A stretch of 64,000 nucleotides of DNA from a virus (lineage: Duplodnaviria; Heunggongvirae; Uroviricota; Caudoviricetes), in IMG/VR virus record IMGVR_UViG_3300018080_000120. One strand, written 5' to 3'. The notes under the pieces are model-generated. The model made no database searches. It had not been told where the DNA came from and saw only the letters and a program-made list of their open reading frames with translations. Positions 1 through 32,516 of the stretch are shown here, piece by piece. Each line of letters starts with the position of its first letter. Position 1 is the stretch's first letter. Made by a program: the position numbers and the translations under genes.

Positions 1-63
1 CGCGCAGGCGATATATGAAAAGCCACAGGTGCGGCTCGAGACCGTATCCATGGGAGGCGCAGT

Positions 64-255: not shown

Positions 256-267
256 GAAAGGAGTCAA

Positions 268-1127: not shown

Positions 1128-1680
1128 CCTGGGGACTGACGAATCCGGTGAGTTCGATAAATTCTATAATTATATGGAAAAGTCGGCAGAACCGGACTTG
1201 AAGTCTCTATTCACGCCGATACCAGTAGAAGACCCATATCTCCGAAAGGTGCTGATTGATGCTGCGGAGAAAATGGAGACTTTTCTGGAAAATCGAGCGA
1301 TCGACATAGGATATCGCGCCAGTCAGACGAGTGAACTCGGAATTGAGACTGACTATTTTCTGATGTCCAAAGGAGAGAATAAACCAATCATCCATGTGTT
1401 TAAATATCGCATGGATATGGAAAAATGGGCTTCCTGGTTGAAAGCTCATACTTACTTGGCGAATGAAGGCCCGTTCACAATAAGAAATCGGGGTATCCGG
1501 TTAACCTTCACAGGTGACAGCGCGGAAAAATACTCCAAACTGACGACAAGTATAAGTCGGAAAGGGTCTTCGTCGGTAGGGGATGACAACTTCCTCGACC
1601 TGAGAAATGCACCACCAACATTCGTTGTCCATAGGGACTATTTCAATAAAAAGGAATGGGTGGTTACTCAGGCAGGATAA
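1105..1680 (+). CDS. hypothetical protein
   Basis: 191-aa ORF overlapping upstream gene end (translational coupling). Confidence 0.5.
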   Translation: MENVLWSNLGTDESGEFDKFYNYMEKSAEPDLKSLFTPIPVEDPYLRKVLIDAAEKMETFLENRAIDIGYRASQTSELGIETDYFLMSKGENKPIIHVFKYRMDMEKWASWLKAHTYLANEGPFTIRNRGIRLTFTGDSAEKYSKLTTSISRKGSSSVGDDNFLDLRNAPPTFVVHRDYFNKKEWVVTQAG

Positions 1681-1846
1681 GAAATCCGCATTGCGGCTCA
1701 TCCCCGAATCTTTGGATGCTTTGCATAGTACCAAGGCCGTGCCGAGTGCCGATCGGTGCGTCGAGATACACTGGGTGCAAAGTAGGAAGGCTAATCATCA
1801 ATAACATTCCCAGACAAACATATTATTTCTTACGGAGGTATTTACT

Positions 1847-2503
1847 ATGGGAGAAATGCTATTTATCGGTACAGATTTAAGAGTTGCGAAAGACCCTGTT
1901 TTCATCCCCGGCGGAACCATTGAGGCCCCCAATCCGGACAAGAATCATGCCATGGTCACCCTGATGACCAACCGGAAGGTCGGAGATAAAGAGTATACAG
2001 ATGCCATCTCCGCCCATTTCTACGGAAAGTCCGCGTCCGTTGCTGCCAATTACCTGTGCAAGGGTAAACAGTGCAATCTTCGCGGTCGGCTTCAAGACTA
2101 TACCCAGGACACCGGCGTCGTAGACGCAAGTGGGAAGAAGATCATATACCGCAAGGTAGAGGTCATCGCCACGAAATTGGAACTGCTTGCAGACCCGATT
2201 TCCAAGATGGATGCAAACATCGCCGCCCTAAAACAGGCCGGTAGGCTCGTTGGTGACGTTACCGCCAAAGACATTCTGCCCCAGAAACACTCCATGGTCG
2301 AGTTCAATCCCGCAGCCGCCGCTTCCACAGGGAAGTATGCGCATGCGACAGTTTGGACGAAGGACCGGGGAACCTGGCAGGCCAATGGTCAGGCCGTTTC
2401 CACGCCCGCAGCCGGGGCTGACGAAGTCGCCCAGCTGAAGGCCCGCTTGGCCGCTCTGGAAGCCAATGGTGCCGCCGCTGGTAGTACCGCCTCGCCGTTC
2501 TAA
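1847..2503 (+). CDS. SSB-like OB-fold single-stranded DNA-binding protein (divergent, Ala/Gly-rich tail ending SPF)
   Basis: N-terminal pattern MLFIGT.LRVAKDP...TLMTNRK...YRKVEVIATKLELL resembles SSB OB fold; flexible A/G-rich C-tail; strong RBS ggaggt. Confidence 0.55.
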   Translation: MGEMLFIGTDLRVAKDPVFIPGGTIEAPNPDKNHAMVTLMTNRKVGDKEYTDAISAHFYGKSASVAANYLCKGKQCNLRGRLQDYTQDTGVVDASGKKIIYRKVEVIATKLELLADPISKMDANIAALKQAGRLVGDVTAKDILPQKHSMVEFNPAAAASTGKYAHATVWTKDRGTWQANGQAVSTPAAGADEVAQLKARLAALEANGAAAGSTASPF

Positions 2504-2544
2504 TACGGTCTGTGCTGAACCTTGGGGATACCCTGCCCATTATG

Positions 2545-2570
2545 GGTGGGGTTCCCCACCTTTTTTTGTT
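2545..2570 (+). terminator. rho-independent terminator
   Basis: GGTGGGG/CCCCACC stem followed by TTTTTTTGTTTTT directly after SSB-like gene stop. Confidence 0.6.
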
Positions 2571-2629
2571 TTTCTACCGAAAAATTTTACTATCTATCCC
2601 GTATTAATTTACTATATAGGAGTTAATCT

Positions 2630-3118
2630 ATGTTAAGTTCCGACTTTCCTTTTGCCGGATTTGTCTTAATTGTAGGATGCATTGTCTTTATTTGCTTGTG
2701 TCCTATTGTTGGAGTTCCGGTTATCTTGACCTGGCTGGTTTTGAACAATAAGGACCGGTTTCATGCGTTATTCTGTGAACCTAATGGCGGCGTTTCTATG
2801 GTTAGAACTTCTAAATTAAAGGAAATGGAGCAAGAATTGGAAGAAAAGGACGAATTTGTTGACCCCGTGGCGGAAAATTATAAGAAAGAGGTCGAAAGTC
2901 TGCTAAAACCGGGGTTTGATCAAAGCCCGGAGTGGCAAAAAGAGACGGAAGAGCTGCGAAAACAGCTAAAAGAAAGGCAAGAAAAGGCTAAAAAAGAAGA
3001 GAAGGAAGATTTAGAGCGCGAAAAGCGTGAAAAAGACGGATATACCGAAGAAATTAAGCAAAAAGTCGATGAAAAAGTCCAAAAAGTGCACTCTTCGTGG
3101 GTCTCCGGTTATTTTTAG
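2630..3118 (+). CDS. membrane-anchored protein with K/E-rich coiled-coil tail
   Basis: N-terminal hydrophobic segment then long lysine/glutamate-rich region. Confidence 0.55.
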   Translation: MLSSDFPFAGFVLIVGCIVFICLCPIVGVPVILTWLVLNNKDRFHALFCEPNGGVSMVRTSKLKEMEQELEEKDEFVDPVAENYKKEVESLLKPGFDQSPEWQKETEELRKQLKERQEKAKKEEKEDLEREKREKDGYTEEIKQKVDEKVQKVHSSWVSGYF

Positions 3119-3279
3119 TAGTGAAATTCCGATTTTTGAGCAATTTTGACGATTTTTTCAAGCAAAATACGATTTTTCGTCAAAAAACCGAATTCTTTTG
3201 AACAAAACGCTAATTTTTCGAAAATTTTGCTATTTTTAGCAAGCAAAATGACCATTTTTTCGATTTTGGGGGTAAAAAA
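3119..3279 (+). repeat. intergenic tandem array of ~7 degenerate ~20-22 bp units (GATTTTTY...CAAAAW)
   Basis: visible repeats: cgatttttgagcaattttgac / gattttttcaagcaaaatac / gatttttcgtcaaaaaacc / gaattcttttgaacaaaacgc / taatttttcgaaaattttgc / tatttttagcaagcaaaatgacc / attttttcgattttggg. Confidence 0.6.
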
Positions 3280-3281
3280 CC

Positions 3282-4034
3282 ATGGAAATATCAGCTCTGT
3301 CAAATAACCCATATGTTGTCAATATTTTTCCTGAACCAGAGAAAATTTCTGATATCAATGATGTGATCCAGAGCATTTTACCCTCGAACGACCTATTTGA
3401 CACAATCAGCGCCATTCAGAACGCTCAGATGGAACTTTTCCGCATTTCGGCGGGGGTAGATTATGGCAAAGCCAGTAGCCTGGATTATGTAAAATACCTG
3501 CAACAAGGAAATCCAAGAATAAAGGCTCTGGCCATGTCTATCGTTAGTCCGTGGGATAGTAATGACACCAAAATGTATAAACTGGAACAATGGGTCATTA
3601 ATAATATTGATTATGTATCTGACTGGGAAAATTATGGTCAGGATGAATACTGGGCTTACCCGACTCAAACTCTGGATCGCATGTCGGGGGATTGTGAAGA
3701 TGGCGCATTTTTACTCCATTCTCTTGCTCTTGCTGCTGGTGTTCCAGCTGAGAGGCTTCGAACTTATGGAGGTCTCGTTTTTAATCCCTATGGAACTCAA
3801 GCCGCTGGCCATGGTTGGACTTCATATCAAAGAGAATCAGATGATGAATGGATCGTAATGGACTGGTGTTATTGGCCAGAAGATTCTCCCGTCGGGGAAA
3901 GAACCCCTATGACGGAAGCTTTAAAATATATCGATGATTTCTTCTTCGTAAGTGCAAAAGAAGGAACAGTAGAAACTCCTTACTCAAATAGAGTGAGATA
4001 CGCAATGGGAGATCTCGTCAATATTTTCGCCTAA
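3282..4034 (+). CDS. transglutaminase-like cysteine protease/transglutaminase superfamily protein
   Basis: GDCEDGAFLLHSLALAAGVPAERLRTYGG (Cys core), GHGW (His), WIVMDW (Asp) = Cys-His-Asp triad of TGase-like fold. Confidence 0.7.
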   Translation: MEISALSNNPYVVNIFPEPEKISDINDVIQSILPSNDLFDTISAIQNAQMELFRISAGVDYGKASSLDYVKYLQQGNPRIKALAMSIVSPWDSNDTKMYKLEQWVINNIDYVSDWENYGQDEYWAYPTQTLDRMSGDCEDGAFLLHSLALAAGVPAERLRTYGGLVFNPYGTQAAGHGWTSYQRESDDEWIVMDWCYWPEDSPVGERTPMTEALKYIDDFFFVSAKEGTVETPYSNRVRYAMGDLVNIFA

Positions 4035-4264
4035 AATCGAAAAAGTGTAACAGTTTAGGGAATGTTCAGCCACCCCCCTATAAAATGGCGACCTCGATAT
4101 AACCCGGTAAAATTTGGTCTCCCCGGCTGGCAAAACCACATAATATATAATAATATCATAAACATACAAAATCAGGTATTTTACCATGAAAATAATACTT
4201 ACATTATGGCTGGTATTTACATTATACCATATAATATTAATATATATACATTAGGAGATAAACC

Positions 4265-4390
4265 ATGAAAGATAAAACAAGGGAAAATATAACCATAGGA
4301 TTTATTATTGGTACGGCTATGGTTATAATATTACTATATTTCTTTGGCGATATGGTGGTAGATTGGTTGTTCCACAAACTAATGTGCTGA
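4265..4390 (+). CDS. small hydrophobic protein (41 aa)
   Basis: RBS ttaggagataaacc-ATG; one TM segment; below ORF-track size cutoff. Confidence 0.35.
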   Translation: MKDKTRENITIGFIIGTAMVIILLYFFGDMVVDWLFHKLMC

Positions 4391-4649
4391 ACACCATATA
4401 AATGTAAAATACCCTATAGTTTATAGGAGGATAGAATGATCTGGAAATTATTCGATTATACTTGCATTTGCGTCATGGACCGATATATCGACGGCTGGTA
4501 TTGTTTGGTTGTCGATTATTGGCTTTGTTACATGTTTTATTGATCTATGGGAGAATAGACCATGAAAAAAGTAATGTTGTATGTTTGTATATATGTGGTT
4601 TCGTTGATGGCTTGCACGGCTTTATTTATATGGTTGGATATACTATGAT

Positions 4650-5133
4650 TTATATTTATATATATATGCCGATCAAATTTTCAGTTCCGCAAAAAATTTT
4701 CGATCGATAAGTTTGGTCGGCCGATCGATGAGAATGTGTGGTCGATCGATACCCTGACGCATACATATATATAAGTAAATATATCATAATAAAATACAAT
4801 ATCAATAACTTAAACCATTACAAACCATACTCAAACCCTACATTTCTAATACTACATATCAAATTGTCCAATCATATCTGGCGTTTATCCTATTACACTT
4901 CTATATATACCCCGTATTCTTTTACTCTACTCTATTATATAAAATAAGTAAATAAATCAAGTAGTTGAATAGGTCAAAAATGGTGTAAAAATACCATAAT
5001 AATATCAACTATTTGGCAGACGATAAATATACCATAAATAAGGCGAAAATACCGAAAAATAGGCATACATATATAAATATATATTAATAGATATTTAAAC
5101 TATTGCCATTATTATGTAAAAGGAGATAACTTT
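4650..5133. promoter_or_regulatory. AT-rich non-coding region with iterons (candidate origin/regulatory region)
   Basis: three CGATCGAT copies at ~4702, ~4723, ~4743 (~21 bp spacing); AAATACCATAA-like repeats at ~4985-5060; no convincing ORF. Confidence 0.4.
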
Positions 5134-5301
5134 ATGACAGAATGGTTGAATAGATTAACGATTCAATTAGCTGGAATCTACGACTATCTCGTGAGCTTAC
5201 CAAAGGAAATATATCACTGGTTTATATCTCTAAGCCCATTGGCTCAGATAGGATTAGTATTATTAATTATTGCTGCCATCATAATAATGCTTGACGAATA
5301 G
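5134..5301 (+). CDS. small membrane protein (55 aa)
   Basis: RBS aaaggagataac; hydrophobic C-terminal half; in-frame 168 nt. Confidence 0.4.
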   Translation: MTEWLNRLTIQLAGIYDYLVSLPKEIYHWFISLSPLAQIGLVLLIIAAIIIMLDE

Positions 5302-5335
5302 TCACTAATAAATAAAAAGGAGGTTTTATTCTATT

Positions 5336-5788
5336 ATGAAATTATTTAGTATTATACTTTGTATAAGTTTACTTTACATGATGATTCACCCCGCGGCGAT
5401 CGCAGCAGAGGGGAGCACCATTTTCTGTTTCGAATGTAGTTATCCATGTTGGAGTGATGCAAAAGGCAATCATGCCACTTCCAAAAAATATCCTATGGAA
5501 TTCAAATTCGTATGGAAACTGGGAGAACGTAATGCCACAATGATAGGAAACGTTGGAACAGCTGAAGTGGCTGCCATACAAAACGCTTGTGGTATCACGT
5601 TTGTTGAGATAACAAATACTGGGAATGTCACAGCAACCACGATTAATCTCGAACAAATAAAAGAAATTAAAAAGAATGGCATCTTACAATATGTAATAAC
5701 TGAATCAGTTCACAGCCGTAACACTATAATGCCAGATGGATATCAAACATGGTGCCAATATTACGGAACTTGTGTTATTAAAAGATAA
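5336..5788 (+). CDS. secreted Cys-containing protein with signal peptide
   Basis: N-terminal MKLFSIILCISLLYMMIHPAAIAA signal; RBS aaaaggagg. Confidence 0.55.
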   Translation: MKLFSIILCISLLYMMIHPAAIAAEGSTIFCFECSYPCWSDAKGNHATSKKYPMEFKFVWKLGERNATMIGNVGTAEVAAIQNACGITFVEITNTGNVTATTINLEQIKEIKKNGILQYVITESVHSRNTIMPDGYQTWCQYYGTCVIKR

Positions 5789-5888
5789 GAATGCAAAAAA
5801 ACATAGGTATATTAATAATAGTGATATTTATTATCCTATGGATAATTGAAGGATAAACTATTGCCATATTTGGAGAAAAGAGGAAAAT

Positions 5889-6215
5889 ATGAGACAAAAA
5901 AGGGCTATCTCAATACTCAATCGATTGAAACTAACGTGGGATGAGAAAGAACAGGAAATGTTAATAGATGACCCATTTCCGAAAATCTCAGCGGATGAAT
6001 ATGAAGACTTAATTCAAGGATGTGACATGAGTGGGTCTCCAGGTCATGATGAACAACAAATTCTAAATCTACTTAAGGCAGCCTATCCAGTAATTCCTTT
6101 CAATATAATTAAACAATTGGAAGGTAGAAAATTACAAGGATTCAGCTATGATCGAAAAAAAGGTGTACTTATAGATATATCAGAAGAAAAAGTATATAAG
6201 TATCCAGAAGAATAG
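5889..6215 (+). CDS. hypothetical protein
   Basis: 108-aa ORF with RBS ggagaaaagagg. Confidence 0.5.
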   Translation: MRQKRAISILNRLKLTWDEKEQEMLIDDPFPKISADEYEDLIQGCDMSGSPGHDEQQILNLLKAAYPVIPFNIIKQLEGRKLQGFSYDRKKGVLIDISEEKVYKYPEE

Positions 6216-6217
6216 TC

Positions 6218-6255
6218 TTTACCAGAAAACATTTTACCCCGCGGCGATCCGCGGG
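6218..6255 (+). promoter_or_regulatory. family-1 upstream element E1 (TTTACCAGAAAACATTTTACC box + CCCCGCGGCGATCCGCGGG hairpin)
   Basis: perfect 7-bp GC stem, CGAT loop, ends 11 nt before ATG 6267 within SD. Confidence 0.7.
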
Positions 6256-6266
6256 AGGAGGAGAAA

Positions 6267-6674
6267 ATGAGCTTAAAAAAATGGATAATAGTAGATTTTG
6301 ACTGCTATCATGGTTGTAATAATCCAGAATTTAATCCAGGATGTGATGAGTCTTCAATCCGAATCAAAATTGATGCAGATTTAAGCAAGGAATACGATTT
6401 GTTCAAAAAGTACATGAAGATACCTTGTCCTCGCTGTGGTAAAGTTGGCGAGCAGAAGAGAAGTGGTTGGTGGGAAGTATCAAATAATGGCAAAATGAAA
6501 GACTATGATGGGTCTTTCTTCACATCAGCACATGTCCAAGATTACACAATAGAAATGATGGAAGCAAAAATCCAAGAAATTGATCATTCAATAGAGGCGC
6601 TAAAGAGGGAAAGAAAGGCTTTTGAAAAGAAAAAGGAGTTAGTCACGGAATGGGTAGAAATTCATAGAAATTAA
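6267..6674 (+). CDS. hypothetical Cys-containing protein (paralog of 12190..12597)
   Basis: 135 aa; about 60% identity to 12190 product (MSLKKWIIVDFDCYHGCNNPEF...PCPRCGKVGE). Confidence 0.65.
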   Translation: MSLKKWIIVDFDCYHGCNNPEFNPGCDESSIRIKIDADLSKEYDLFKKYMKIPCPRCGKVGEQKRSGWWEVSNNGKMKDYDGSFFTSAHVQDYTIEMMEAKIQEIDHSIEALKRERKAFEKKKELVTEWVEIHRN

Positions 6675-6681
6675 AGAATTA

Positions 6682-6703
6682 TTCACTCGCGGGCGATCCG
6701 CGG
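6682..6703 (+). promoter_or_regulatory. family-1 upstream element E2 (TTCACTCGCGGGCGATCCGCGG)
   Basis: hairpin CGCGG-GCGATC-CGCGG 14 nt before ATG 6718. Confidence 0.65.
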
Positions 6704-6717
6704 CGAGGAGATAAAAT

Positions 6718-7170
6718 ATGAGAAATGAACAGGGCTGGATAGTTATAGCCGAAACAAAAGATATTCCAGATGGCAACTATCTTCTGTCGTGGTGGTTTGA
6801 TGGCACTGGAGCGTATCCGGTACAGATTAAGGATGGTAAGGTGGCGCCTTATACCAGCTTTCGGGAGCCACAACCACTTTCTGTATTTAACAATTATCAC
6901 CTGCTTGAAGATACAAAAGAGCGAACCGTGTTCTATGAGGTAAACTACGACAGTGCAACGAATGTAGGACCTGCCACAGCCTACGGATCCACTCACCAAA
7001 TAGGATACTATAGAACATTACTCAATGCGAAGAAAGCGGCGGAAAAACATCGTGGGGGTGAGAAGATAGAGTGGGCTCCAAGTGAGGATGCTCTGACATG
7101 TAGATATTATATCAAAGAACAGTCCCGCAATGTTAAATATGAAATAATAGCACATTTGTTTGATGATTAA
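6718..7170 (+). CDS. hypothetical protein (N-terminus duplicated as remnant at 9285)
   Basis: 150 aa; first ~17 aa nearly identical to 9285..9395 remnant. Confidence 0.6.
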   Translation: MRNEQGWIVIAETKDIPDGNYLLSWWFDGTGAYPVQIKDGKVAPYTSFREPQPLSVFNNYHLLEDTKERTVFYEVNYDSATNVGPATAYGSTHQIGYYRTLLNAKKAAEKHRGGEKIEWAPSEDALTCRYYIKEQSRNVKYEIIAHLFDD

Positions 7171-7186
7171 TTTTAAGGAGAATAAT

Positions 7187-7384
7187 ATGTTAGAAACATT
7201 GACCGGAAAGAGAAGATTCCGTAAAGGATTCTTTGGTAAGTTAATACTTCAAGTAGAAGTCACAGCAGAATTCGATACGGAGATATGTCCAGGAATAGGG
7301 GATATCGAGAGAAGAGAAGTTACTGGATATCGGGATGCAACTATTGAAGACTTAACCGTACATGATAATGTAAAAGGAGAATAA
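7187..7384 (+). CDS. hypothetical small protein
   Basis: RBS ttaaggagaataat-ATG; 65 aa. Confidence 0.5.
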   Translation: MLETLTGKRRFRKGFFGKLILQVEVTAEFDTEICPGIGDIERREVTGYRDATIEDLTVHDNVKGE

Positions 7385-7385
7385 A

Positions 7386-7505
7386 ATGCCAGAAGCATTA
7401 AAACAAATGATGTGGTGTGTATTTGGAATACTTGCAATTTATGTAGGCATATATCTTTTGTTTAGTATTCCTGTTATAGTATATAAACTTATAGAACGTT
7501 TATAA
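7386..7505 (+). CDS. small membrane protein (39 aa)
   Basis: RBS aaaaggagaataaa-ATG; single TM. Confidence 0.35.
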   Translation: MPEALKQMMWCVFGILAIYVGIYLLFSIPVIVYKLIERL

Positions 7506-7510
7506 GAGCT

Positions 7511-7546
7511 TTTACCAGAAAACATTTTACCCCGCGGCGATCCGCG
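7511..7546 (+). promoter_or_regulatory. family-1 upstream element E3 (TTTACCAGAAAACATTTTACCCCGCGGCGATCCGCG)
   Basis: second copy of extended box + hairpin, ends 12 nt before ATG 7559. Confidence 0.7.
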
Positions 7547-7558
7547 TTAGAGGTGATA

Positions 7559-7882
7559 ATGAAAGAACCAGAAATAATAAAAGAGTATCAAGTCAGAACT
7601 ATGCGAAAATGGGTAGAGTTAGGGCCAAATCGCAGATGTCCAAGATACTGGCGAGATATAATCTGCTCAAAATCAAGGAGATGCGTCTGCCTTAGAGATG
7701 TTGAAACCCCATGGTGCTGGGGATGTGCGGATTGTGAAAGATTTTTCCCAAAGGTAAGCCGTGGTATGAAGGAAAACAGTGATAACTTTCCTTGTCCTTG
7801 TGACTTATATGGCAAAGAGCAAGTTGTAAAAATGGCAAAAAAGTATATCAGAGGATGGGAAGAACAAAGTTATGAGCAATAG
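7559..7882 (+). CDS. Cys-rich small protein
   Basis: multiple Cys pairs (CPRYW...CVCLRDVETPWCWGCADC). Confidence 0.55.
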   Translation: MKEPEIIKEYQVRTMRKWVELGPNRRCPRYWRDIICSKSRRCVCLRDVETPWCWGCADCERFFPKVSRGMKENSDNFPCPCDLYGKEQVVKMAKKYIRGWEEQSYEQ

Positions 7883-7890
7883 CCTGATTA

Positions 7891-7911
7891 TTCACCCGCA
7901 GGCGATCCGCG
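7891..7911 (+). promoter_or_regulatory. family-1 upstream element E4 (TTCACCCGCAGGCGATCCGCG)
   Basis: degenerate hairpin 14 nt before ATG 7926. Confidence 0.6.
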
Positions 7912-7925
7912 TTAAGGAGGTGAGT

Positions 7926-8582
7926 ATGTATAAATATATAGTATTACTAATCAGTATGTTATGTCTGGTAGCATGTGCTCCTTCTTATGAAGAATTGTGT
8001 GAGAAACGTACTAAGATAGAAACTGAATTAGTGCTCTGGGCTAATTGTAGGAGTAGTTTCGCTCAGACATCTAATATGATACAGAAAATCCGCGAACTGG
8101 ATAAAATCACTGCTGAAATAGAGAAACACTATCCAGCCAAATGCCAGCAGGAATTAGAAGAGAATAAACCAAAAGTGGTAAAAACCTATGACAGTTTTAT
8201 AATAACTTCTGATGGATATGTTATCGAGGCAGATAAGAGAACATATTTCTACGAAGGATATGAGTATGGAAGGCGCTGTAGCTGTCTATTCGACGATCTA
8301 AGTGTATTATATGAGGACTACGACCTAAACGCCGTCCACGAGCTGGTCGCAACATATCCAAGGTGCTTCACACCTGTGAAAGCATGGACTCTTGGAGTAC
8401 TGTGTAATAAGCCAGAGAAACTGCCTGAAGGATATACATACTCAGGAATGCATAAAATAAGATTTAGCGGGTCATATAAAAAATACTATGCACATGCAAA
8501 ACAACTATTCATGTTCCAGACTTATCAAGAACCAAAACCCAAATATTTAGATATAGGAGAAGACTACGAGTTGGTAGAATAG
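7926..8582 (+). CDS. lipoprotein
   Basis: MYKYIVLLISMLCLVAC lipobox signal peptide. Confidence 0.55.
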   Translation: MYKYIVLLISMLCLVACAPSYEELCEKRTKIETELVLWANCRSSFAQTSNMIQKIRELDKITAEIEKHYPAKCQQELEENKPKVVKTYDSFIITSDGYVIEADKRTYFYEGYEYGRRCSCLFDDLSVLYEDYDLNAVHELVATYPRCFTPVKAWTLGVLCNKPEKLPEGYTYSGMHKIRFSGSYKKYYAHAKQLFMFQTYQEPKPKYLDIGEDYELVE

Positions 8583-8627
8583 TATATAACTATATATACC
8601 TAACTATTTTAGGCATTTAACACTCTA
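8581..8627 (+). repeat. family-2 upstream element A (AGTATATAACTATATATACCTAACTATTTT...)
   Basis: shares AAGTATRTATTACTAAYTATTT box with copies at 8891 and 9388. Confidence 0.5.
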
Positions 8628-8639
8628 TTGGAGGGCCAT

Positions 8640-8861
8640 ATGATTACACTGAAAGAAGGGGACATTTGCCCAGAATGTGAGAGGGGGCATTTAAAGCCAG
8701 CTGTGAAGGATATAAACTTTACATGTAAGGGTAAAGTGTTCTTTTCAGAAGAAAATATGGCCATACTACGCTGTGATCTATGTGACTATAAAACCTTTAG
8801 GGATAGGGCAAAAAGCGAAGAAATCGAAAAGGCCCTTATAGCGTTTCGAGAAAAGATGTAA
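8640..8861 (+). CDS. zinc-ribbon small protein
   Basis: CPECERG...CDLCDY; SD ggaggg 5 nt upstream. Confidence 0.55.
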   Translation: MITLKEGDICPECERGHLKPAVKDINFTCKGKVFFSEENMAILRCDLCDYKTFRDRAKSEEIEKALIAFREKM

Positions 8862-8890
8862 AAGGGCATAAATTGTATCTATGTATGTAT

Positions 8891-8951
8891 AAGTATATAT
8901 TACTAACTATTTGCTGAGCCATATCAGTGGTTTAGCAGTGATCAAGGAGGG
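8891..8951 (+). repeat. family-2 upstream element B (AAGTATATATTACTAACTATTT ... GTTTAGCAGTGATCAAGGAGGG)
   Basis: two conserved boxes; ends 5 nt before ATG 8957. Confidence 0.6.
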
Positions 8952-8956
8952 TCAGA

Positions 8957-9250
8957 ATGAAAGATACCAATTTCACGGTAGAAATAGATGTAGGTGATGG
9001 CAGAACCTTACACTTCAATACCGATCAGTTGAAGATAGACATCTATCAATTATCTGGTAAAGAACGGGTAAAGGCAATGCATATATTCGGTGTTGCAGAA
9101 GGGATTATACCAAGAGATCAGCCAGAACAGAAAGTTATGACACTTAAAGCTGAAGCTGTTTGTAAGCCTGATAGTGGTGTTGATGTACTTAAGAGAGGGC
9201 CTCATGGTAATAAGAATAGTGTTATAACCTTTAGTTCAAGTGAAATGTAA
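8957..9250 (+). CDS. hypothetical protein
   Basis: 97-aa ORF downstream of family-2 element. Confidence 0.5.
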   Translation: MKDTNFTVEIDVGDGRTLHFNTDQLKIDIYQLSGKERVKAMHIFGVAEGIIPRDQPEQKVMTLKAEAVCKPDSGVDVLKRGPHGNKNSVITFSSSEM

Positions 9251-9272
9251 TTCACCCGCGACCGATCCACAC
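9251..9272 (+). promoter_or_regulatory. family-1 upstream element E5, degenerate (TTCACCCGCGACCGATCCACAC)
   Basis: left arm conserved, right arm decayed; precedes gene remnant. Confidence 0.5.
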
Positions 9273-9284
9273 TAGGAGACAAAT

Positions 9285-9395
9285 ATGAGGAACGAACAAG
9301 GCTGGATAGTTATAGCCAAAACAGAAAATATACCACCAGTTGATTGCTTTCTACTGGGTAATGAAATCAACGAGTTCGTCAATCATGGTATATAA
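9285..9395 (+). pseudogene. truncated paralog (36 codons) of 6718..7170
   Basis: MRNEQGWIVIAKTENIP... matches MRNEQGWIVIAETKDIP...; DNA near-identical for ~50 nt then diverges to early stop. Confidence 0.5.
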
Positions 9396-9453
9396 GTATG
9401 TATTACTAATATTTTATAACGCCTTTTCGGGGCGTTAGCGGTGATCCAGGAGG
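9388..9453 (+). repeat. family-2 upstream element C (GGTATATAAGTATGTATTACTAATATTTT ... hairpin AACGCC-TTTTCGG-GGCGTT ... GCGTTAGCGGTGATCCAGGAGG)
   Basis: 6-bp perfect hairpin at ~9418-9436 embedded between the two boxes. Confidence 0.6.
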
Positions 9454-9458
9454 TCATT

Positions 9459-9668
9459 ATGGCAAGACAGCAATTTTTCTATTTATTAGAAATTGATGAT
9501 GAAGTTGAAAATGAGGTATTTTACAACACAAAACAAATAGTAGATCACATAGAAGAACAAGGACTGGTCAATGGAGATGAAGATGTACAGGTTTTGAAAG
9601 TAAAGCTCCATAAAGTTATTAAGCCTATTATAGAGAGAAAGATTACTATACCAGAGGATACAGAATAA
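9459..9668 (+). CDS. hypothetical acidic small protein
   Basis: ATG 6 nt after ccaggagg SD (ORF-track GTG 9441 also possible). Confidence 0.5.
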   Translation: MARQQFFYLLEIDDEVENEVFYNTKQIVDHIEEQGLVNGDEDVQVLKVKLHKVIKPIIERKITIPEDTE

Positions 9669-9676
9669 CCCGATAA

Positions 9677-9697
9677 TTCACCCACGACCGATTCGTG
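9677..9697 (+). promoter_or_regulatory. family-1 upstream element E6, compensatory variant (TTCACCCACGACCGATTCGTG)
   Basis: stem CACGA/TCGTG preserved by paired substitutions; 14 nt before ATG 9712. Confidence 0.65.
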
Positions 9698-9711
9698 AGA
9701 AAGAGGAGGAA

Positions 9712-9897
9712 ATGAAGTTATACTTTTTATTCAGAGTCAGTTTGCTAAGCACGACCAAGGATATTTGTAGGAAAGAGATGATGAAACCGGTGAGTGCCAG
9801 CACAGAGCAGAATGCAGTGAATAAACTCTTGCGTTACTTCGATTTTAATCACGAAGGCTGGAAAGTTGAAGAGATAGAAAACTGTACAATATCATAG
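9712..9897 (+). CDS. hypothetical small protein
   Basis: 61-aa ORF. Confidence 0.45.
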   Translation: MKLYFLFRVSLLSTTKDICRKEMMKPVSASTEQNAVNKLLRYFDFNHEGWKVEEIENCTIS

Positions 9898-9918
9898 CGT
9901 TAGCAGTGATCAAGGGGG
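9897..9918 (+). repeat. family-2 upstream element D (GCGTTAGCAGTGATCAAGGGGG)
   Basis: second box only; 7 nt before GTG 9926. Confidence 0.55.
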
Positions 9919-9925
9919 TAAGAAC

Positions 9926-10192
9926 GTGAACATTAAGAAAATAGGTAAATTTATCGAAATAGACCCAACACATTTGTTCTATAAAAAGTATACCATATGG
10001 AGTAATGGAGGCATGTTAGTAGATCGTCGTAAACCTACAAGGGTACAATCATATTTAGATGAATTGCCTCTTCTCTGGGAAGTACTTTTGAAAGCTGCAT
10101 ACTATGTAATTACATGGCCTATTGCAGCAGTTATTAAGTTCGTGTGGTACTTACTTACTGGTATATTTGTTCCTTCTAGGTTTTTAAGGTAG
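9926..10192 (+). CDS. hypothetical protein with C-terminal TM segment (GTG start)
   Basis: 88-aa ORF; hydrophobic C-terminus. Confidence 0.45.
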   Translation: MNIKKIGKFIEIDPTHLFYKKYTIWSNGGMLVDRRKPTRVQSYLDELPLLWEVLLKAAYYVITWPIAAVIKFVWYLLTGIFVPSRFLR

Positions 10193-10212
10193 GAAACAGG
10201 ACAACCTGATTA

Positions 10213-10234
10213 TTCACCCGCGCGAGGATTCGCG
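10213..10234 (+). promoter_or_regulatory. family-1 upstream element E7, compensatory variant (TTCACCCGCGCGAGGATTCGCG)
   Basis: stem CGCGA/TCGCG, loop GGAT. Confidence 0.65.
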
Positions 10235-10252
10235 AGAAAGGGAGGAAGGAGA

Positions 10253-10423
10253 ATGTTTAGACTATTCAAAAAAGACCCTCTAAAAAGGAAGCTAAGAAAG
10301 GCTAAAAGGGCAAAGAAGCAGGAAAGTAAAGCATATTGGAAAGCTGCCGAGGCAAGATGGAAAGAAGGACTTAGAATCGATGAATACATGGAGATGTGTA
10401 TACCGGCTGGAACTATGATTTAA
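10253..10423 (+). CDS. small basic protein (56 aa)
   Basis: strong SD gggaggaaggaga; follows E7; below ORF-track cutoff. Confidence 0.45.
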   Translation: MFRLFKKDPLKRKLRKAKRAKKQESKAYWKAAEARWKEGLRIDEYMEMCIPAGTMI

Positions 10424-10478
10424 ATCCACTACATAAAGCGTAATTCGCCCTGTGGTAACCAACAAGGAGGAGCAGATA

Positions 10479-10793
10479 ATGACAAAATCAGAAATTAACA
10501 GAGTAATGGAGAAAGTCAAACTTAATCCGATGCCTATTGATGAAAAGACAGGAAAACAGAATCCTTGGATATGCCCAAAATGTCAGGCTGAAGGCAAAGC
10601 AAAAGAAGAAATTCTGGATGAGAAAACTGAGTCTGCGGACTTCATGCTCGGAAATGAATCACTGTCGTACATAGAAATGGCGTGTGAATGTGGCTACGAG
10701 TGGTATATTATCTTGGAGTCAAAAGGCTGGACGGATGATGATGTTGCAGCGGAAGATATAATAAGCAAATTCATCCATGAAAAAGAAGAGTAA
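10479..10793 (+). CDS. zinc-ribbon protein
   Basis: CPKCQ...CECG; SD caaggagg. Confidence 0.55.
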   Translation: MTKSEINRVMEKVKLNPMPIDEKTGKQNPWICPKCQAEGKAKEEILDEKTESADFMLGNESLSYIEMACECGYEWYIILESKGWTDDDVAAEDIISKFIHEKEE

Positions 10794-10839
10794 GCAACAT
10801 TATTCATTCGTAGCTATCTGCGAAAAAGGAGGAAAAGAT

Positions 10840-11112
10840 ATGTCTGAGGAGAAAACAAGAGTAATTGACGGAGTCGAATATGAAGAAATGGGCCCTTACT
10901 GTGATATATGTGGGGCTCATATGGGTGAATACTATGATCCTAAGAAGGGATCTTTTATTAACCCGCACAATTATGATGAATACAGCAGCAATGTTTGCCC
11001 AGAATGCGGCCAGGAATATTCTTACGAAGAGGGTGATATGCCTATACTTGATGATGAAATGAAGGCTCTTATACTGGCGCATAACAAAGCGAAGCTCAAA
11101 GGAAAAGAGTAG
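10840..11112 (+). CDS. zinc-ribbon protein
   Basis: CDICG...CPECG; SD aaaggagg. Confidence 0.55.
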   Translation: MSEEKTRVIDGVEYEEMGPYCDICGAHMGEYYDPKKGSFINPHNYDEYSSNVCPECGQEYSYEEGDMPILDDEMKALILAHNKAKLKGKE

Positions 11113-11120
11113 GACAAATC

Positions 11121-11140
11121 TTTACCCGCGGCGATCCGCG
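11121..11140 (+). promoter_or_regulatory. family-1 upstream element E8 (TTTACCCGCGGCGATCCGCG)
   Basis: 13 nt before ATG 11154. Confidence 0.65.
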
Positions 11141-11153
11141 TTAGGAGGATAGA

Positions 11154-11498
11154 ATGATAAATCTTAAAGACTACATTTTAGACAGGATAGCGATTTCGTG
11201 CACTAACTTTCAACCATCGCTAACAGCAATGCGGCTTTTCGGAAGCTCGACCAGCTACGATAATATAGAATATGTATATATCTATAAAGATAACAAACGT
11301 GTGGGCAGCCTTAAGCTGTACTTCGAAGTGGATACTTTTAAAATAACCTTGGATAAAGGCCAGTTAGGTATGTTTAAAGGCAAATCGTATACTGGGCAGT
11401 ACGCCGATTTAACAGCTCTTGATGGAGTGGCCCAATGGCTTATTAAAGAAGCGGTTTCTGAGAACATCGACAAGGCCAAGCTCAAAGAAAAGAGATAA
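11154..11498 (+). CDS. hypothetical protein
   Basis: 114-aa ORF. Confidence 0.55.
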   Translation: MINLKDYILDRIAISCTNFQPSLTAMRLFGSSTSYDNIEYVYIYKDNKRVGSLKLYFEVDTFKITLDKGQLGMFKGKSYTGQYADLTALDGVAQWLIKEAVSENIDKAKLKEKR

Positions 11499-11540
11499 AC
11501 TCTTTATCTACTCAGCGATCCTCATAAAGGTGGTGAAACA

Positions 11541-11738
11541 ATGAACTTCGAAAAAATGAGAGAAACCTGTCCATCACATATTACAGAATATCATGGACAC
11601 TGGCATAAATGTAGATCTCGAATACATCGGGAGACTGCAAGAGGCCAGGTACTCTTTGATGTCTGTAGTAAGAAAAACTGTCCTTTTTTACATGTGTTAA
11701 GGCATGTGTTGGGATTTGTGAAGGAAAAAAGAGGATGA
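11541..11738 (+). CDS. His/Cys-containing small protein
   Basis: 65-aa ORF, SD aaaggtggtg. Confidence 0.45.
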   Translation: MNFEKMRETCPSHITEYHGHWHKCRSRIHRETARGQVLFDVCSKKNCPFLHVLRHVLGFVKEKRG

Positions 11739-11914
11739 TCTCAAAAGAACAATTATTACATATTGTGAGTGTTTGTCCAGATAAGATGCCATCAGAAAAA
11801 GAACTCAAAGATCTGTATGAGTGTCATCTTAGACAATGTAAACATCCAAAGGAAGAAGATGAGTACTGGCAAAGAGTAACGAATAGAGTTAATGATATAA
11901 TAAGAAAAAAGTAG
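11735..11914 (+). CDS. small protein (59 aa)
   Basis: ATGA overlap with upstream; SD aaaagagg. Confidence 0.4.
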   Translation: MISKEQLLHIVSVCPDKMPSEKELKDLYECHLRQCKHPKEEDEYWQRVTNRVNDIIRKK

Positions 11915-11916
11915 TT

Positions 11917-11953
11917 TTTACCAGAAAACGTTTTACCCCGCGGCGATCCGCGG
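11917..11953 (+). promoter_or_regulatory. family-1 upstream element E9 (TTTACCAGAAAACGTTTTACCCCGCGGCGATCCGCGG)
   Basis: third copy of extended box + perfect hairpin. Confidence 0.7.
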
Positions 11954-11966
11954 AGAGGAGGAGAGA

Positions 11967-12146
11967 ATGCTAGTAAAAATCAATTTGAAAGATGGGGAAG
12001 AACCTATACACGGATCATCATGGGATATCGATGAGCCTAGTGGCATGATAATACTGAGAGGAAAAACGCCAGCACCTGATGAGAAAGTATATGAATACAA
12101 TGTACCTATAGATAATATAGTGTATATCCAAGAATTGGAAGAATAA
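11967..12146 (+). CDS. small protein (59 aa)
   Basis: SD gaggaggagaga. Confidence 0.45.
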   Translation: MLVKINLKDGEEPIHGSSWDIDEPSGMIILRGKTPAPDEKVYEYNVPIDNIVYIQELEE

Positions 12147-12154
12147 CCAAATTC

Positions 12155-12176
12155 TTTACCGCGCGAGGATCCGCGC
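12155..12176 (+). promoter_or_regulatory. family-1 upstream element E10 variant (TTTACCGCGCGAGGATCCGCGC)
   Basis: stem GCGCG/CGCGC with GGATCC loop. Confidence 0.65.
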
Positions 12177-12189
12177 TGAGGAGAAGCAA

Positions 12190-12597
12190 ATGAGCTTAAA
12201 AAAATGGATAATAGTAGATTTTGACTGCTATCATGGTTGTAATAATCCGGAGTTTAAGATCGGCTGCGACGAATCCCTTATCCGTATTAAGATCGATGAC
12301 ACTTTGGCCATGAAGCATATGCTTGCCAAAAAATATATGAGAATGCCCTGCCCTCGTTGCGGTAAGGTTGGTGAGCACAAGAGATCTGGCTATTGGCTGG
12401 CTCCAGAAGATGGACAGATGGAAGATTACGATGGGACTACTTTCACTCCTGCGGACGTTCAGGACTACACAGCAGAAATGATGGAAGCGAAAATTTCAGA
12501 AATTGCCCACCTGATAAGCAACAAGAAGGAGGAACTGACAGCCCTTGAGAAAGAAAAGGAGTCTATAAAGGAATGGGTAGAAATTCATAAAAATTAA
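12190..12597 (+). CDS. hypothetical Cys-containing protein (paralog of 6267..6674)
   Basis: 135 aa, same length and register as 6267 product. Confidence 0.65.
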   Translation: MSLKKWIIVDFDCYHGCNNPEFKIGCDESLIRIKIDDTLAMKHMLAKKYMRMPCPRCGKVGEHKRSGYWLAPEDGQMEDYDGTTFTPADVQDYTAEMMEAKISEIAHLISNKKEELTALEKEKESIKEWVEIHKN

Positions 12598-12604
12598 AGA
12601 ACTA

Positions 12605-12626
12605 CCCACCCCGCGGCGATCTACGG
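12605..12626 (+). promoter_or_regulatory. family-1 upstream element E11, degenerate (CCCACCCCGCGGCGATCTACGG)
   Basis: left arm intact, right arm mutated. Confidence 0.5.
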
Positions 12627-12642
12627 AGAGGAGGCAAAAGAT

Positions 12643-12885
12643 ATGTATTTATCAGCCACGCCAGAAAATATGGAAATCGCACTGGCAATCACAAAGGAGC
12701 ATGGTGAAAACGCCAATGTGCAAATAATATCTCGTGATAAACTGAGCGCCTCCAACAAATCATTGAAAGCGCGTCATCCTGATGCAAAAGCTTTTATCTT
12801 TCTGAGCAACATAGATGTGGTATGTTTATGTACTCGGGAACTTGAAAAATATCTTGAAAAACTGGAGAAGGAGAAAGAAAAGTGA
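12643..12885 (+). CDS. hypothetical protein
   Basis: 80-aa ORF. Confidence 0.5.
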   Translation: MYLSATPENMEIALAITKEHGENANVQIISRDKLSASNKSLKARHPDAKAFIFLSNIDVVCLCTRELEKYLEKLEKEKEK

Positions 12886-13079
12886 TAGCAGTTTTTTTCA
12901 TTATAATTTTTGCCACAATGATGATAGCTTTAATGCAAGGAGTAGGATTATGTAATTTTATTACAAAATATGATTGGTCGCCTCTAAAAAGTGTGGTTAT
13001 AACTGTATTTGCTGCATTGGTAGATGGAGTTCTCATGACATGCCTTCTCTATGAAATATGTGGCATATCATTCTTTTAA
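12882..13079 (+). CDS. small membrane protein
   Basis: two TM segments; ATGA overlap. Confidence 0.45.
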   Translation: MIAVFFIIIFATMMIALMQGVGLCNFITKYDWSPLKSVVITVFAALVDGVLMTCLLYEICGISFF

Positions 13080-13088
13080 GGAAAATCT

Positions 13089-13415
13089 ATGATTAAAAAT
13101 CTATTATTATCAATAGTATTTGTTTTATACTGCGGCGCAAATGCTTTGGCGGCTGACAAATGGAATACTGAAGAAAAAGTTCTCTATGGAACTTTCATCG
13201 GATTACAGGCTTTAAACTACGGCAACACAAATGAAGCTTGTGAACAAGGCACGGAAGCAATGCCTCATATGAAGAAAATTCATGAGAAATATGGTTCAAC
13301 AGGTCTTGTTGTTTACAAAGTAGTTACCACAGCAGGTGTTGGTGTTGTAGCTCATTTTCTTCCGAAGCCTTATAGGAGATATTTCCTATGGGGGGGCAAA
13401 TTTCGTTGTTGGTAG
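13089..13415 (+). CDS. secreted protein with signal peptide
   Basis: MIKNLLLSIVFVLYCGANALA signal. Confidence 0.5.
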   Translation: MIKNLLLSIVFVLYCGANALAADKWNTEEKVLYGTFIGLQALNYGNTNEACEQGTEAMPHMKKIHEKYGSTGLVVYKVVTTAGVGVVAHFLPKPYRRYFLWGGKFRCW

Positions 13416-13477
13416 TTTTGTGATACATGATAATTTTGTTGCTGCACATTTCAAATGGTAGGAGGTTAAAAAACATA

Positions 13478-14272
13478 ATGAAAATTGCTGTTCTAAGCAA
13501 ACTGTTCGCTGAAGGGGTAGCACCAGTGGTAGGAAGGCCCTATGCAATAATTAGCATTACCGACCCAACATCGGATAGTGCTACATTCAAACCGAATGAG
13601 TATTGCAGGGGTGTCCTATTCTTAAAGTTTTACGATATTGACTTTACCGACCCGGAAAAAACTGATGACCAAGTTGCCGTGAAAAGAGATTATGGACACG
13701 GTCTATTCACGAATGAGCAAGCAAAACAAATAGTTGACTTTGTTGAAGAAATCAAAGACAAAGTGAAAATCATCATTTGTAATTGCGATGCTGGCATTTC
13801 TAGGTCATCAGGTGTTGGTGCTGCCATTCAGAAATATCTAACCGGCTCGGATAAAGAAATATTTAACGATAATCGATATCTGCCAAATATGTATGTATAT
13901 CGGAAAGTTCTAAATGAGTTTTACAAGGAGGAAATAACGATGCAAAAATTTCAACGAGGACAAAGAGTACGAATAACAGATAAAATGCCTTCTTCTATGT
14001 CGCATTTTGAATGTGACTGCGAAGCTATTGTAGAATATACTTATACTGAAAGATATCATGGAGGCGAAAATAATGATAAAGAATATTCTTTGTTTATTCT
14101 TGTGGAACCTGGTACAAAGCTCGTGAGTCTGGAAACTGGCGAAGTGAGTACCGATAGAGAAGGATACTCAATTTCTTGGTACAAAGAAGACCAACTTACA
14201 TTGGTAAACAAAGACCCAAAACCAGGCCTTGAAATTCTAAAAAGAGCTGGCAGAGAAATAACATGGAAATGA
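13478..14272 (+). CDS. dual-specificity/tyrosine phosphatase-like protein with C-terminal extension
   Basis: ICNCDAGISRSSGVGAAI = CX5R(S) P-loop (HCxAGxxRSG-like); SD ggtaggagg. Confidence 0.55.
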   Translation: MKIAVLSKLFAEGVAPVVGRPYAIISITDPTSDSATFKPNEYCRGVLFLKFYDIDFTDPEKTDDQVAVKRDYGHGLFTNEQAKQIVDFVEEIKDKVKIIICNCDAGISRSSGVGAAIQKYLTGSDKEIFNDNRYLPNMYVYRKVLNEFYKEEITMQKFQRGQRVRITDKMPSSMSHFECDCEAIVEYTYTERYHGGENNDKEYSLFILVEPGTKLVSLETGEVSTDREGYSISWYKEDQLTLVNKDPKPGLEILKRAGREITWK

Positions 14273-15404: not shown

Positions 15405-15704
15405 ATGCATAAATATATATCAATATTATTAATCAGTCTGTTTTGTGTGTCAGCATTCATTACTCCTCTGGCTGCTTATGAGCCACAAGTAGGGGAAGAG
15501 TTCAAAGTAATACTTAAAGTGGTTATATATACCAGAGATGGCGAGCGAGTTAATGAAATCCTTACAAACAACATAAGATTTCTTCGACAATGCTTGGAAG
15601 TGCATCCTAAAAGGACTCCTATAATCAATGGATTAGGACACACAATATACATACCATATTCAAATATAAAGGCAGTGATAGAGAGAAGAATTCATACCCA
15701 ATGA
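15405..15704 (+). CDS. secreted/membrane small protein
   Basis: signal-like MHKYISILLISLFCVSAFITPLAA. Confidence 0.5.
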   Translation: MHKYISILLISLFCVSAFITPLAAYEPQVGEEFKVILKVVIYTRDGERVNEILTNNIRFLRQCLEVHPKRTPIINGLGHTIYIPYSNIKAVIERRIHTQ

Positions 15705-32461: not shown

Positions 32462-32486
32462 TCCGGCCCCAGTTGTAAGACTATTA

Positions 32487-32516
32487 GTGGCCTCTTAACT
32501 GAGGCCACTTTTTTTA
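32487..32516 (+). terminator. rho-independent terminator
   Basis: GTGGCCTC-TTAACT-GAGGCCAC then TTTTTTT. Confidence 0.75.

Follow-up and report, generated by a model that had tools for sequence, protein, structure and literature searches.

Locus and small-gene region

The stretch of DNA analysed here (hereafter the window) comprises 64,000 nucleotides of the IMG/VR virus record IMGVR_UViG_3300018080_000120 (Caudoviricetes). The whole genome measures at least 124 kb, of which the window covers 64 kb, and the sequence has the look of a segment from a large phage genome of the virulent type. Almost every plausible gene is on the + strand and is preceded by a strong AGGAGG-type Shine-Dalgarno (SD) sequence. 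The GC content is about 0.38, but reaches 0.45–0.47 across the first 4 kb (1–4000). The subject of this study is a short repeated module, here called family 2, which is located between small genes and combines an AT-rich box (AT box) with a ribosome-binding leader. It is found in a characteristic part of the window. An AT-rich, mostly non-coding stretch of 1.1 kb (4040–5130), whose + strand open reading frames (ORFs) are only three tiny ones (4265–4648), is followed by approximately 30 small ORFan genes at 5.1–13 kb. This is the sole part of the window with regular intergenic spacers, and we infer that it is an early-type region. The ORFans around the family 2 modules encode 36–218 aa and belong to no Pfam or PHROG family, and no homologue of the gene after copy B was found among 5.8 billion proteins. 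A second set of repeats, family 1, occupies the same region.

Copies and architecture of family 2

The AT box spans about 26 nt without interruption (consensus approximately GTATATAAGTATATATTACTAAcTATTT), is directional and ends 30–45 nt before start codons. Three AT-rich boxes before small genes were reported in the earlier note, and all of them were recovered: the pattern AAGTATRTATTACTAAYTATTT matched at 8588–8609 (three mismatches), 8891–8912 (none) and 9394–9415 (two), whereas zero matches are expected by chance and none occurred in any of 100 dinucleotide shuffles. A position weight matrix (PWM) gave scores of 28.9–30.4 for these boxes (copies A, B and C) and 25.6 for a fourth one, copy E, compared with a shuffle maximum of 19.6; it should be noted that the matrix was built from these four copies themselves. 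All four clear AT boxes are intergenic and have one orientation (+). The interval 8581–9925 originally given for the family is therefore correct for copies A–D, but not for the family as a whole, since copy E lies outside it. Copy E precedes the first gene after the 1.1-kb non-coding region. It has no hairpin, and its leader differs from that of the other copies (AAACTATTGCCAT). The same leader is shared by copy G, one of two doubtful, diverged AT boxes (F and G; Table 1), and the hairpin after copy G (5831–5856) was not significant (z = −0.8). Together, the four clear and two doubtful boxes are all located between 4.7 and 9.4 kb of the window. Two further PWM matches, at 7925 and 15404, are coding sequence and were not accepted as modules: they fall in paralogous signal peptides (MYKYIVLLIS and MHKYISILLIS), whose AT-rich codons mimic the AT box at the DNA level. 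These signal peptides, at 7926–7976 and 15405–15455, read MYKYIVLLISMLCLVAC, with a lipobox, and MHKYISILLISLFCVSA.

Table 1 Positions of family 2 elements and of the RNA polymerase gene in the window
Feature	Position	Strand	Basis or remark
AT box F, possible and diverged (TATATATAAGTAAATATATCATAATAAAAT)	4766–4795	+	In non-coding stretch 4040–5130; PWM 12.9, equal to background; tentative
AT box, copy E (CATATATAAATATATATTAATAGATATTTA)	5068–5097	+	PWM 25.6; 37 nt before ATG of first small gene (5134)
AT box G, possible and diverged (GGTATATTAATAATAGTGATATTTA)	5806–5833	+	Before gene 5889; weak, alignment needs indels
AT box, copy A	8581–8610	+	Starts at stop codon of gene 7926–8582; ends 30 nt before ATG 8640
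AT box, copy B (TATGTATAAGTATATATTACTAACTATTTG)	8884–8913	+	Pattern match, PWM, alignment
Leader hairpin, copy B (12 bp including 4 G.U; loop AUCA)	8911–8938	+	−15.4 kcal/mol, z = −4.9
Leader, copy B (GTGATCAAGGAGG, SD, then GTCAGA)	8938–8956	+	Runs into ATG 8957
AT box, copy C	9387–9416	+	Stop codon of 36-aa ORF 9285–9395 inside
Leader hairpin, copy C (UAACGCCUU-UUC-GGGGCGUUA)	9417–9437	+	Folding
Leader, copy C (GCGGTGATCCAGGAGG, SD, then TCATT)	9438–9458	+	Runs into ATG 9459
Copy D, truncated	9882–9925	+	76% identity to 3' part of copy B (CTG..C.ATATCA...GCGTTAGCAGTGATCAAGGGGG); runs into GTG 9926
Fused beta/beta' two-barrel RNA polymerase, single chain of 1099 aa	53091–56390	+	Rpb2_6 and Rpb1_2 domains

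The second conserved element, box 2 (GCGTTAGCRGTGATCMAGGRGG), is present in the three copies in which it had been seen, at 8929–8950 (two mismatches), 9432–9453 and 9897–9918 (no mismatch in either); the chance expectation is again zero, and shuffled sequences gave no match. The hairpin described for copy C also proved to be real, with 9 bp including two G.U pairs and a folding energy of −10.5 kcal/mol (z = −2.6). An equivalent and stronger hairpin, missed before, was found in copy B, where 0 of 200 shuffles folded as well and the opposite strand reached only −5.5 kcal/mol. Because copy B folds equivalently to copy C, the GCGTTAGC half of box 2 is recognised as the 3' arm of the hairpin. In copy B this arm corresponds to the GGTTTAGCAG part of box 2, and the remainder of the box, GTGATCMAGGRGG, represents the leader and the SD. 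The 5' arms of the two hairpins differ (UUGCUGAGCCAU in B, UAACGCCUU in C), yet pairing is maintained, and both hairpins start at, or at most 1 nt past, the end of the conserved TATTT. An additional UGAUC-GGUCA pairing, which would place the SD in a small loop, is predicted in copies B and C only. The order of a full module is AT box, hairpin, GTGATCMAGGAGG (containing the SD; GUGAUCMAGGAGG as RNA) and ATG.

All four starts to which a module had been assigned (8640, 8957, 9459 and 9926) are indeed preceded by one, in intergenic position and on the + strand, but the four modules are not equivalent. Copies B and C are complete, copy A consists of the AT box without hairpin or box 2, and copy D is a truncated 3' remnant that retains only the 3' arm and GTGATCAAGGGGG and has no AT box; its decayed 5' arm serves as the last codons of ORF 9712–9897. 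Over 74 nt, copies B and C share 73% identity, whereas their flanks show 51% and 55%, and random pairs 49 ± 3%. The resemblance ends at the intergenic borders and the genes downstream are unrelated ORFans, which indicates that the module itself is what has been kept. The start codon at 9459 is supported by the gene call on an identical contig. This independent contig (ENA ERZ27256773, 1081 nt, L121 in our list) corresponds at 100% identity to 8833–9913 of the window and ends in box 2 of copy D. Another contig, L144, begins at about 14.2 kb, and the early region with its many repeats seems to be a place where assemblies of this phage are interrupted. Look-ups by exact protein, aimed at the early region of an 85-kb sister contig (ERZ27256796:k141_440059) and at the remainder of the source contig, yielded short contigs or nothing.

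Several possible identities of the leader were examined. The hairpins at 8911–8938 and 9417–9437 are not in the list of intrinsic terminators and have no U tract after them, the following sequence being AGCAGUGAUC or AGCGGUGAUC; a terminator reading was therefore rejected. No Rfam 15 family matched positions 4000–13500 on either strand at E ≤ 1. Box 2 contains CGTTAG, part of the late-promoter word of phage SPO1 (CGTTAGA), but no GATATT follows at the right distance and the SPO1 reading was dropped. A core G(C/T)GATC(C/A) occurs at 8938–8944, 9441–9447 and 9906–9912, as well as in family 1 loops. It is complementary to the 3' end of 16S rRNA just 5' of the anti-SD (GGAUCACCUCCUUA). The core sits 5' of AGGAGG, whereas in a canonical extended SD it would be 3'.

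Relation to family 1

Family 1 consists of a TTyACCC box, a GC hairpin of 5–7 bp with an nGATy loop, and an SD. A covariance-model search located 15 copies, all at 5378–12645 and none elsewhere in the window. Four of them (7891, 9251, 9677 and 10213) are in array with family 2, such that family 1 copies stand before, between and after family 2 copies, as the term 'interleaved' in the earlier note implied. One copy (5385–5411) is inside ORF 5336–5788 and not between genes. Compensatory variants are seen in the individual folds of family 1 (CACGA/UCGUG, CGCGA/UCGCG and UUCGUAG/CUGCGAA), while covariation on a MAFFT alignment was weak (67% of positions paired, controls similar); we relied on the individual folds because the copies differ in loop register.

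The idea that family 2 is a diverged version of family 1 found no support in the sense of membership. The covariance model built from the 15 family 1 copies recovered all 15 of them (29–49 bits) but no family 2 copy at E ≤ 10. The two families are alike in their site between stop codon and SD, in orientation and in having a hairpin shortly before the SD. In contrast, family 2 lacks the TTyACCC box, has longer hairpins with unrelated loops, carries GATC after the hairpin and not in its loop, and possesses the AT box, which has no counterpart in family 1. A core shared by both families, G(C/T)GATCC-purine-GG-AGG, had also been proposed. GATCC words are common to both, but the gap between GATCC and the SD is 5–9 nt in family 1 and one in family 2. 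Only two short words are held in common: GCGTTAG, found at 7544 and 11138 in family 1 and at 9432 and 9897 in family 2, and CGG[CT]GATCC, found at 6242, 7535, 11129 and 11941 in family 1 and at 9439 in copy C. Copy C also carries CGGTGATCC, which agrees with the family 1 word CGGCGATCC at nine of ten positions. Because copy C thus contains family 1 words in swapped order, it is possible that the family 2 leader arose from family 1 material by recombination.

Comparison with related phages

The closest relative obtained was a contig from Logan SRR21285571 (L122), with a phosphatase 92% identical to that of the window and long DNA blocks at 96–99% identity. Comparison by blastn revealed that window positions 7553–11121 (3.57 kb with approximately 11 small ORFan genes), a segment that contains family 2 copies A–D, are absent from this relative (5369–5400). 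Based on a three-way junction alignment, the ends of the indel fall inside the family 1 copies at 7526–7553 and 11119–11146, and the crossover sits within CCCGCGGCGATCCGCGTTAG, which both of these copies contain. The junction provides direct evidence that gene blocks are gained or lost through family 1. No indel bounded by family 2 copies was seen, and copy D and a chimeric ORF at 9285–9395 are only suggestive as signs of family 2 recombination.

The chimeric ORF has 36 codons. Its first 17 codons and the family 1 module upstream are paralogous to those of gene 6718–7170 (14/17 aa; 82% DNA identity, 9250–9335 against 6681–6768), whereas the remainder is unrelated to that gene and the stop codon lies inside AT box C; the ORF looks like a recombination scar. 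A segmental duplication is also present in the region (6255–6732 and 12178–12655, spacing 5923 nt, 72–83% identity) and takes in a 135-aa gene with flanking family 1 modules.

Two more distant relatives, L136 and L123, encode RNA polymerases 61–63% identical to that of the window. Their early layout is the same but the sequences are others: iterons in a non-coding region come first, then AT-rich tandem boxes, and then small genes with upstream families of their own. In L136, TATAAAATAYGTGTAYACA occurs three times, the last one being followed by a small hairpin and an SD. In L123, GTACTAATAGTA occurs four times, and the families TTnACCCCnCCGGAATTT and CAGACACTTAnAGGAGG are present in addition; the first of these keeps the TTyACCCC word of family 1. 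The regions homologous to the non-coding stretch of the window (3000–4260 in L123 and 3400–4560 in L136) contain, in addition, a gene on the minus strand with numerous iterons on either side (TGTGGCCACRAT in L123 and ATGGCCATG in L136). The window stretch itself has CGATCGAT words at 4700–4750 and may be a regulatory or origin region. Beyond these contigs, megablast of 7500–11500 against GenBank phages found nothing, and a 15-mer of the family 1 core gave only single chance matches in unrelated contigs of IMG/VR.

Candidate function of the AT box

Family 2 is a real, small and strain-specific set of phage regulatory repeats of a familiar type, useful for annotation and unsurprising to a phage biologist. 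The earlier note regarded it as a distinct module and possibly as a distinct promoter class. The first part agrees with our results, and for the second the sequence suggests the following. At a level of confidence that we would call evenly balanced, the AT box and its leader may constitute a cassette of promoter and 5' leader in an early region prone to recombination. In favour of this reading are the four co-oriented intergenic boxes, the place of copy E after the non-coding stretch, the sequence kept inside the module borders, the hairpins that begin at the end of TATTT, the poor fit to sigma-70, the polymerase encoded in the window, and the AT-rich tandem boxes of the relatives. The AT box would be the promoter of individual small early genes in a virulent-type phage, and its contiguous AT block would be better suited to a phage-specific transcription machinery than to a sigma-70 holoenzyme. 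The start of transcription would be at, or directly past, the conserved TATTT. In copies B and C the hairpin would then occupy the extreme 5' end of the mRNA and could protect it from 5'-end-dependent decay, and the GUGAUCMAGGAGG leader would provide a strong ribosome-binding site. The cassette would have been copied or recombined before unrelated ORFan genes and would decay over time, copy A having lost its leader or never had one and copy D having lost the promoter half. Like family 1, it would reside in a region where short repeats mediate gene-block gain or loss. If the AT box is a promoter, its 26 nt could serve as a concrete substrate for testing how an uncultivated phage lineage with an unusual fused beta/beta' RNA polymerase carries out its transcription programme.

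An ordinary sigma-70 promoter does not fit the box. A promoter scan listed no AT box and found no enrichment in the window (34 promoters versus 40 ± 6 expected), no candidate −10 hexamer retains A-11 and T-7 across the copies, and conservation forms one continuous block. On the other hand, the likeness to promoters of multisubunit phage RNA polymerases, which had been pointed out before, is a sensible lead but not specific. The AR9 early promoter consensus was matched at 12 of 13 positions in copy E and 11 of 13 in copy B; however, AAATATATATTAT at up to two mismatches had 16 matches in the window compared with 8.7 ± 3 expected in such AT-rich sequence, and the resemblance can for this reason not be considered specific.

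This lack of specificity is one of several points that weigh against a promoter cassette. Apart from the copies listed in Table 1, neither the remainder of the window nor the 10 kb of genome beyond its end contains an AT box. With four clear copies in 64 kb, the AT box is therefore not a genome-wide promoter class in the sequence read. Neither the AT box nor box 2 occurs in 20 kb of the closest relative. Scans of IMG/VR with a 19-mer of the AT box and the box 2 pattern gave no relatives, the exact AT box being absent, and a 20-mer of the AT box had 10 matches in JGI metagenomes, which we consider to be due to chance because they are isolated, lie in unrelated contexts and show no other similarity to the window. 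The hairpin exists in two copies only (B and C), so that its covariation rests on n = 2. Canonical intrinsic terminators at 2530–2560, 32480–32518 and 56840–56880 suggest that a host-type RNA polymerase transcribes at least part of the genome, and a promoter used before any phage protein is made would need the host enzyme unless the phage one is injected. Finally, the repeat with its borders, the hairpins and their strand bias, the poor fit to sigma-70 and the indel have been shown, whereas promoter activity, start site, stabilising role and acting polymerase are inferred.

Because the window encodes an RNA polymerase of its own (Table 1), in which both double-psi barrel regions are carried by a single chain (beta, Rpb2_6, residues 331–476; beta', Rpb1_2, residues 742–826), a phage-specific promoter is possible. 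In metagenomes, 432 homologues of approximately 1100 aa were identified, some of them on contigs of 189–327 kb, whereas tblastn gave no match among 50,697 GenBank phage records and polymerase peptide patterns revealed no relatives in the IMG/VR scan. The closest sequence matches in PDB were bacterial beta subunits (E = 2e-6). A scan of the genome collection with the polymerase yielded two marginal matches in metagenome-assembled genomes and no host clue, and no split beta/beta' subunits were present among approximately 50 window proteins scanned. The two genes directly upstream of the polymerase gene (50790–51935 and 51948–53063) could not be assigned to a family. It is possible, though we consider it unlikely, that the AT box is read by this single-chain fused polymerase, with the hairpin being part of an initiation or early-elongation signal or of the leader. 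If true, this would be the first candidate promoter for this fused polymerase family: YonO was the only characterised single-chain relative of cellular RNA polymerases that we found in the literature, and its promoter sequence is undetermined (PMC5467207).

We consider it rather unlikely that the AT box is an early promoter for the host RNA polymerase (sigma-A/sigma-70) followed by a stem-loop, that is, a true PeSL-type (promoter-early stem-loop) repeat as in T4-type phages, with a degenerate −10, a weak −35 contributed by the non-conserved flank and the AT-rich upstream part serving as an UP element. The requirement for host enzyme before any phage protein exists, unless the phage polymerase is injected, speaks for such a promoter. 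TATATT (B and E) agrees with five of six positions of the −10 consensus, but the candidate hexamer is without A-11 in C (TGTATT) and without T-7 in A (TATATA). Similarly, TTGGTA (A) and TCGTCA (C), located 16–17 nt upstream, each match four of six positions of the −35 consensus, but neither word belongs to the conserved block, and copy E lacks a word of this kind. Although degenerate consensus hexamers are also known from PeSLs of some T4-like phages (PMC4122927), the scan under standard rules listed no box, and continuous conservation over about 26 nt is not the pattern of two hexamers with a free spacer.

Still less probable, in our view, is an RNA element in a polycistronic early transcript, in which an AU-rich endonuclease site (RNase Y/E-like or for a phage nuclease) is combined with a protective hairpin. 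After cleavage, the hairpin would become the 5' end of the downstream cistron and uncouple the stability of neighbouring genes. The sense-strand hairpins immediately 3' of the AU-rich box and the lack of a terminator before the boxes would suit such processing, and read-through transcripts are likely because the genes are co-oriented and tightly spaced. However, sequence-specific conservation over 26 nt exceeds what known AU-rich cleavage sites need, and the hairpin is missing from copies A and E. Copy E moreover follows the 1.1-kb non-coding stretch, where a promoter is needed anyway, and the AT-rich boxes of the relatives stand in tandem before the first early gene, an arrangement typical of promoters.

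It appears improbable that the AT box is an operator, bound by a phage regulator that represses or activates some of the early genes, or by a host nucleoid protein, rather than a promoter. A long conserved block in few copies before selected genes would be compatible with this, and the homologous non-coding region of the relatives has iterons for a divergent regulator gene; but those iterons are GC-containing palindromes and not AT boxes, the orientation of the box is strictly co-directional with the genes, and the box is asymmetric, a partial dyad in B and C (AGTA-N5-TACT) being lost in A and E. Equally improbable is that family 2 has no function of its own and is a scrambled by-product of family 1 recombination and extended SD sequences, kept because it is young: copy C does carry CGGTGATCC and GCGTTAG in swapped order, the whole segment is missing from the closest relative and copy D is decaying, but the AT box has no family 1 counterpart and is found again at 5068, at a distance of 3.5 kb, the family 1 model misses family 2, the hairpin pairing is maintained though the arms differ, and the modules are still 73–76% identical where the flanks have diverged to background.

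Other features of the window

Other recognisable genes of the window include those for a helicase, SSB, a NUDIX protein and COOH-NH2 ligases, as well as NAD salvage genes (NAPRTase, 26034–27221; NAD synthase, 25120–26037) and an RNA-repair set at 39225–44782 (CCA-adding enzyme, Rnl2-type RNA ligase and RtcB). Despite this RNA-repair set, no tRNA gene was found by ARAGORN in the 64 kb. The order of SSB-like genes in 1–4000 is syntenic with L123. Upstream of a transglutaminase-like gene (3282–4034), positions 3120–3280 contain direct repeats that are imperfect and spaced 81 nt apart (ATTTTTGAGCAATTTTGACGATTTTTTCAAGCAAAAT and relatives), and L123 has an A/T-run region similar to this one. Among 4-nt palindromes, CTAG is strongly depleted in the window (26 observed versus 99 expected, ratio 0.26), compared with ratios of 0.73–1.06 for the others. 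A connection with Dam methylation was discarded, as GATC is neither depleted nor enriched (observed/expected 0.92).

Comparison with known systems

Stem-loops at the 5' end stabilise several mRNAs, including those with the E. coli ompA leader, the B. subtilis ermC and aprE leaders and the SP82 phage stabiliser. Copies B and C resemble these elements in that a stable hairpin comes right after the putative start and is followed by a very strong SD, and the host evidently uses strong SDs. They differ in having no sequence relationship to them, and their hairpins have only a presumed place with respect to the transcript end.

The virion RNA polymerases of jumbo phages recognise phage-specific, highly conserved AT-rich early promoter motifs of 10–13 nt centred near −10 (PMC7598289 for the phiKZ group; PMC5312081), and the AR9 early promoter reads AAATATATATTAT-(6N)-G+1 (PMC5312081). 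The AT box is comparable as a contiguous, phage-specific AT-rich block before early genes in a phage that encodes a beta/beta'-type RNA polymerase, and in both cases relatives each have a different AT-rich motif. However, all four clear copies (A, B, C and E) have T at the position 6 nt past the block, where AR9 has G, there are four to six AT boxes here versus tens of promoters, and the polymerase is one fused chain of 1099 aa in contrast to four or five split subunits.

In function, the nearest analogue of family 2 is the PeSL of T4-type phages. PeSLs are composite promoter and stem-loop repeats between the ORFans of hyperplastic regions, and indels that distinguish sister phages are accounted for by recombination from one PeSL to another (Arbiol et al., 2010, PMC2839356; Comeau et al., 2014, PMC4122927). 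The present system is similar in several respects. Short composite repeats with a promoter-type box, a stem-loop and an SD are placed between small ORFans of a hyperplastic early region, gene-block indels with crossovers in repeats distinguish close phages (here for family 1), and degraded copies are present. On the other hand, family 2 is without the sigma-70-type −35/N17/−10 arrangement, its hairpin lies downstream of the box, in the leader, has no U tract and is found in only two of four copies, and the phage is unrelated to T4-like phages and has its own RNA polymerase. Because the defining promoter and terminator features fail, family 2 is better described as PeSL-like in function than as a PeSL. 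If the AT box is a promoter, family 2 would, together with family 1, indicate that PeSL-like shuffling of ORFans through short regulatory repeats also takes place outside the T4-like phages.

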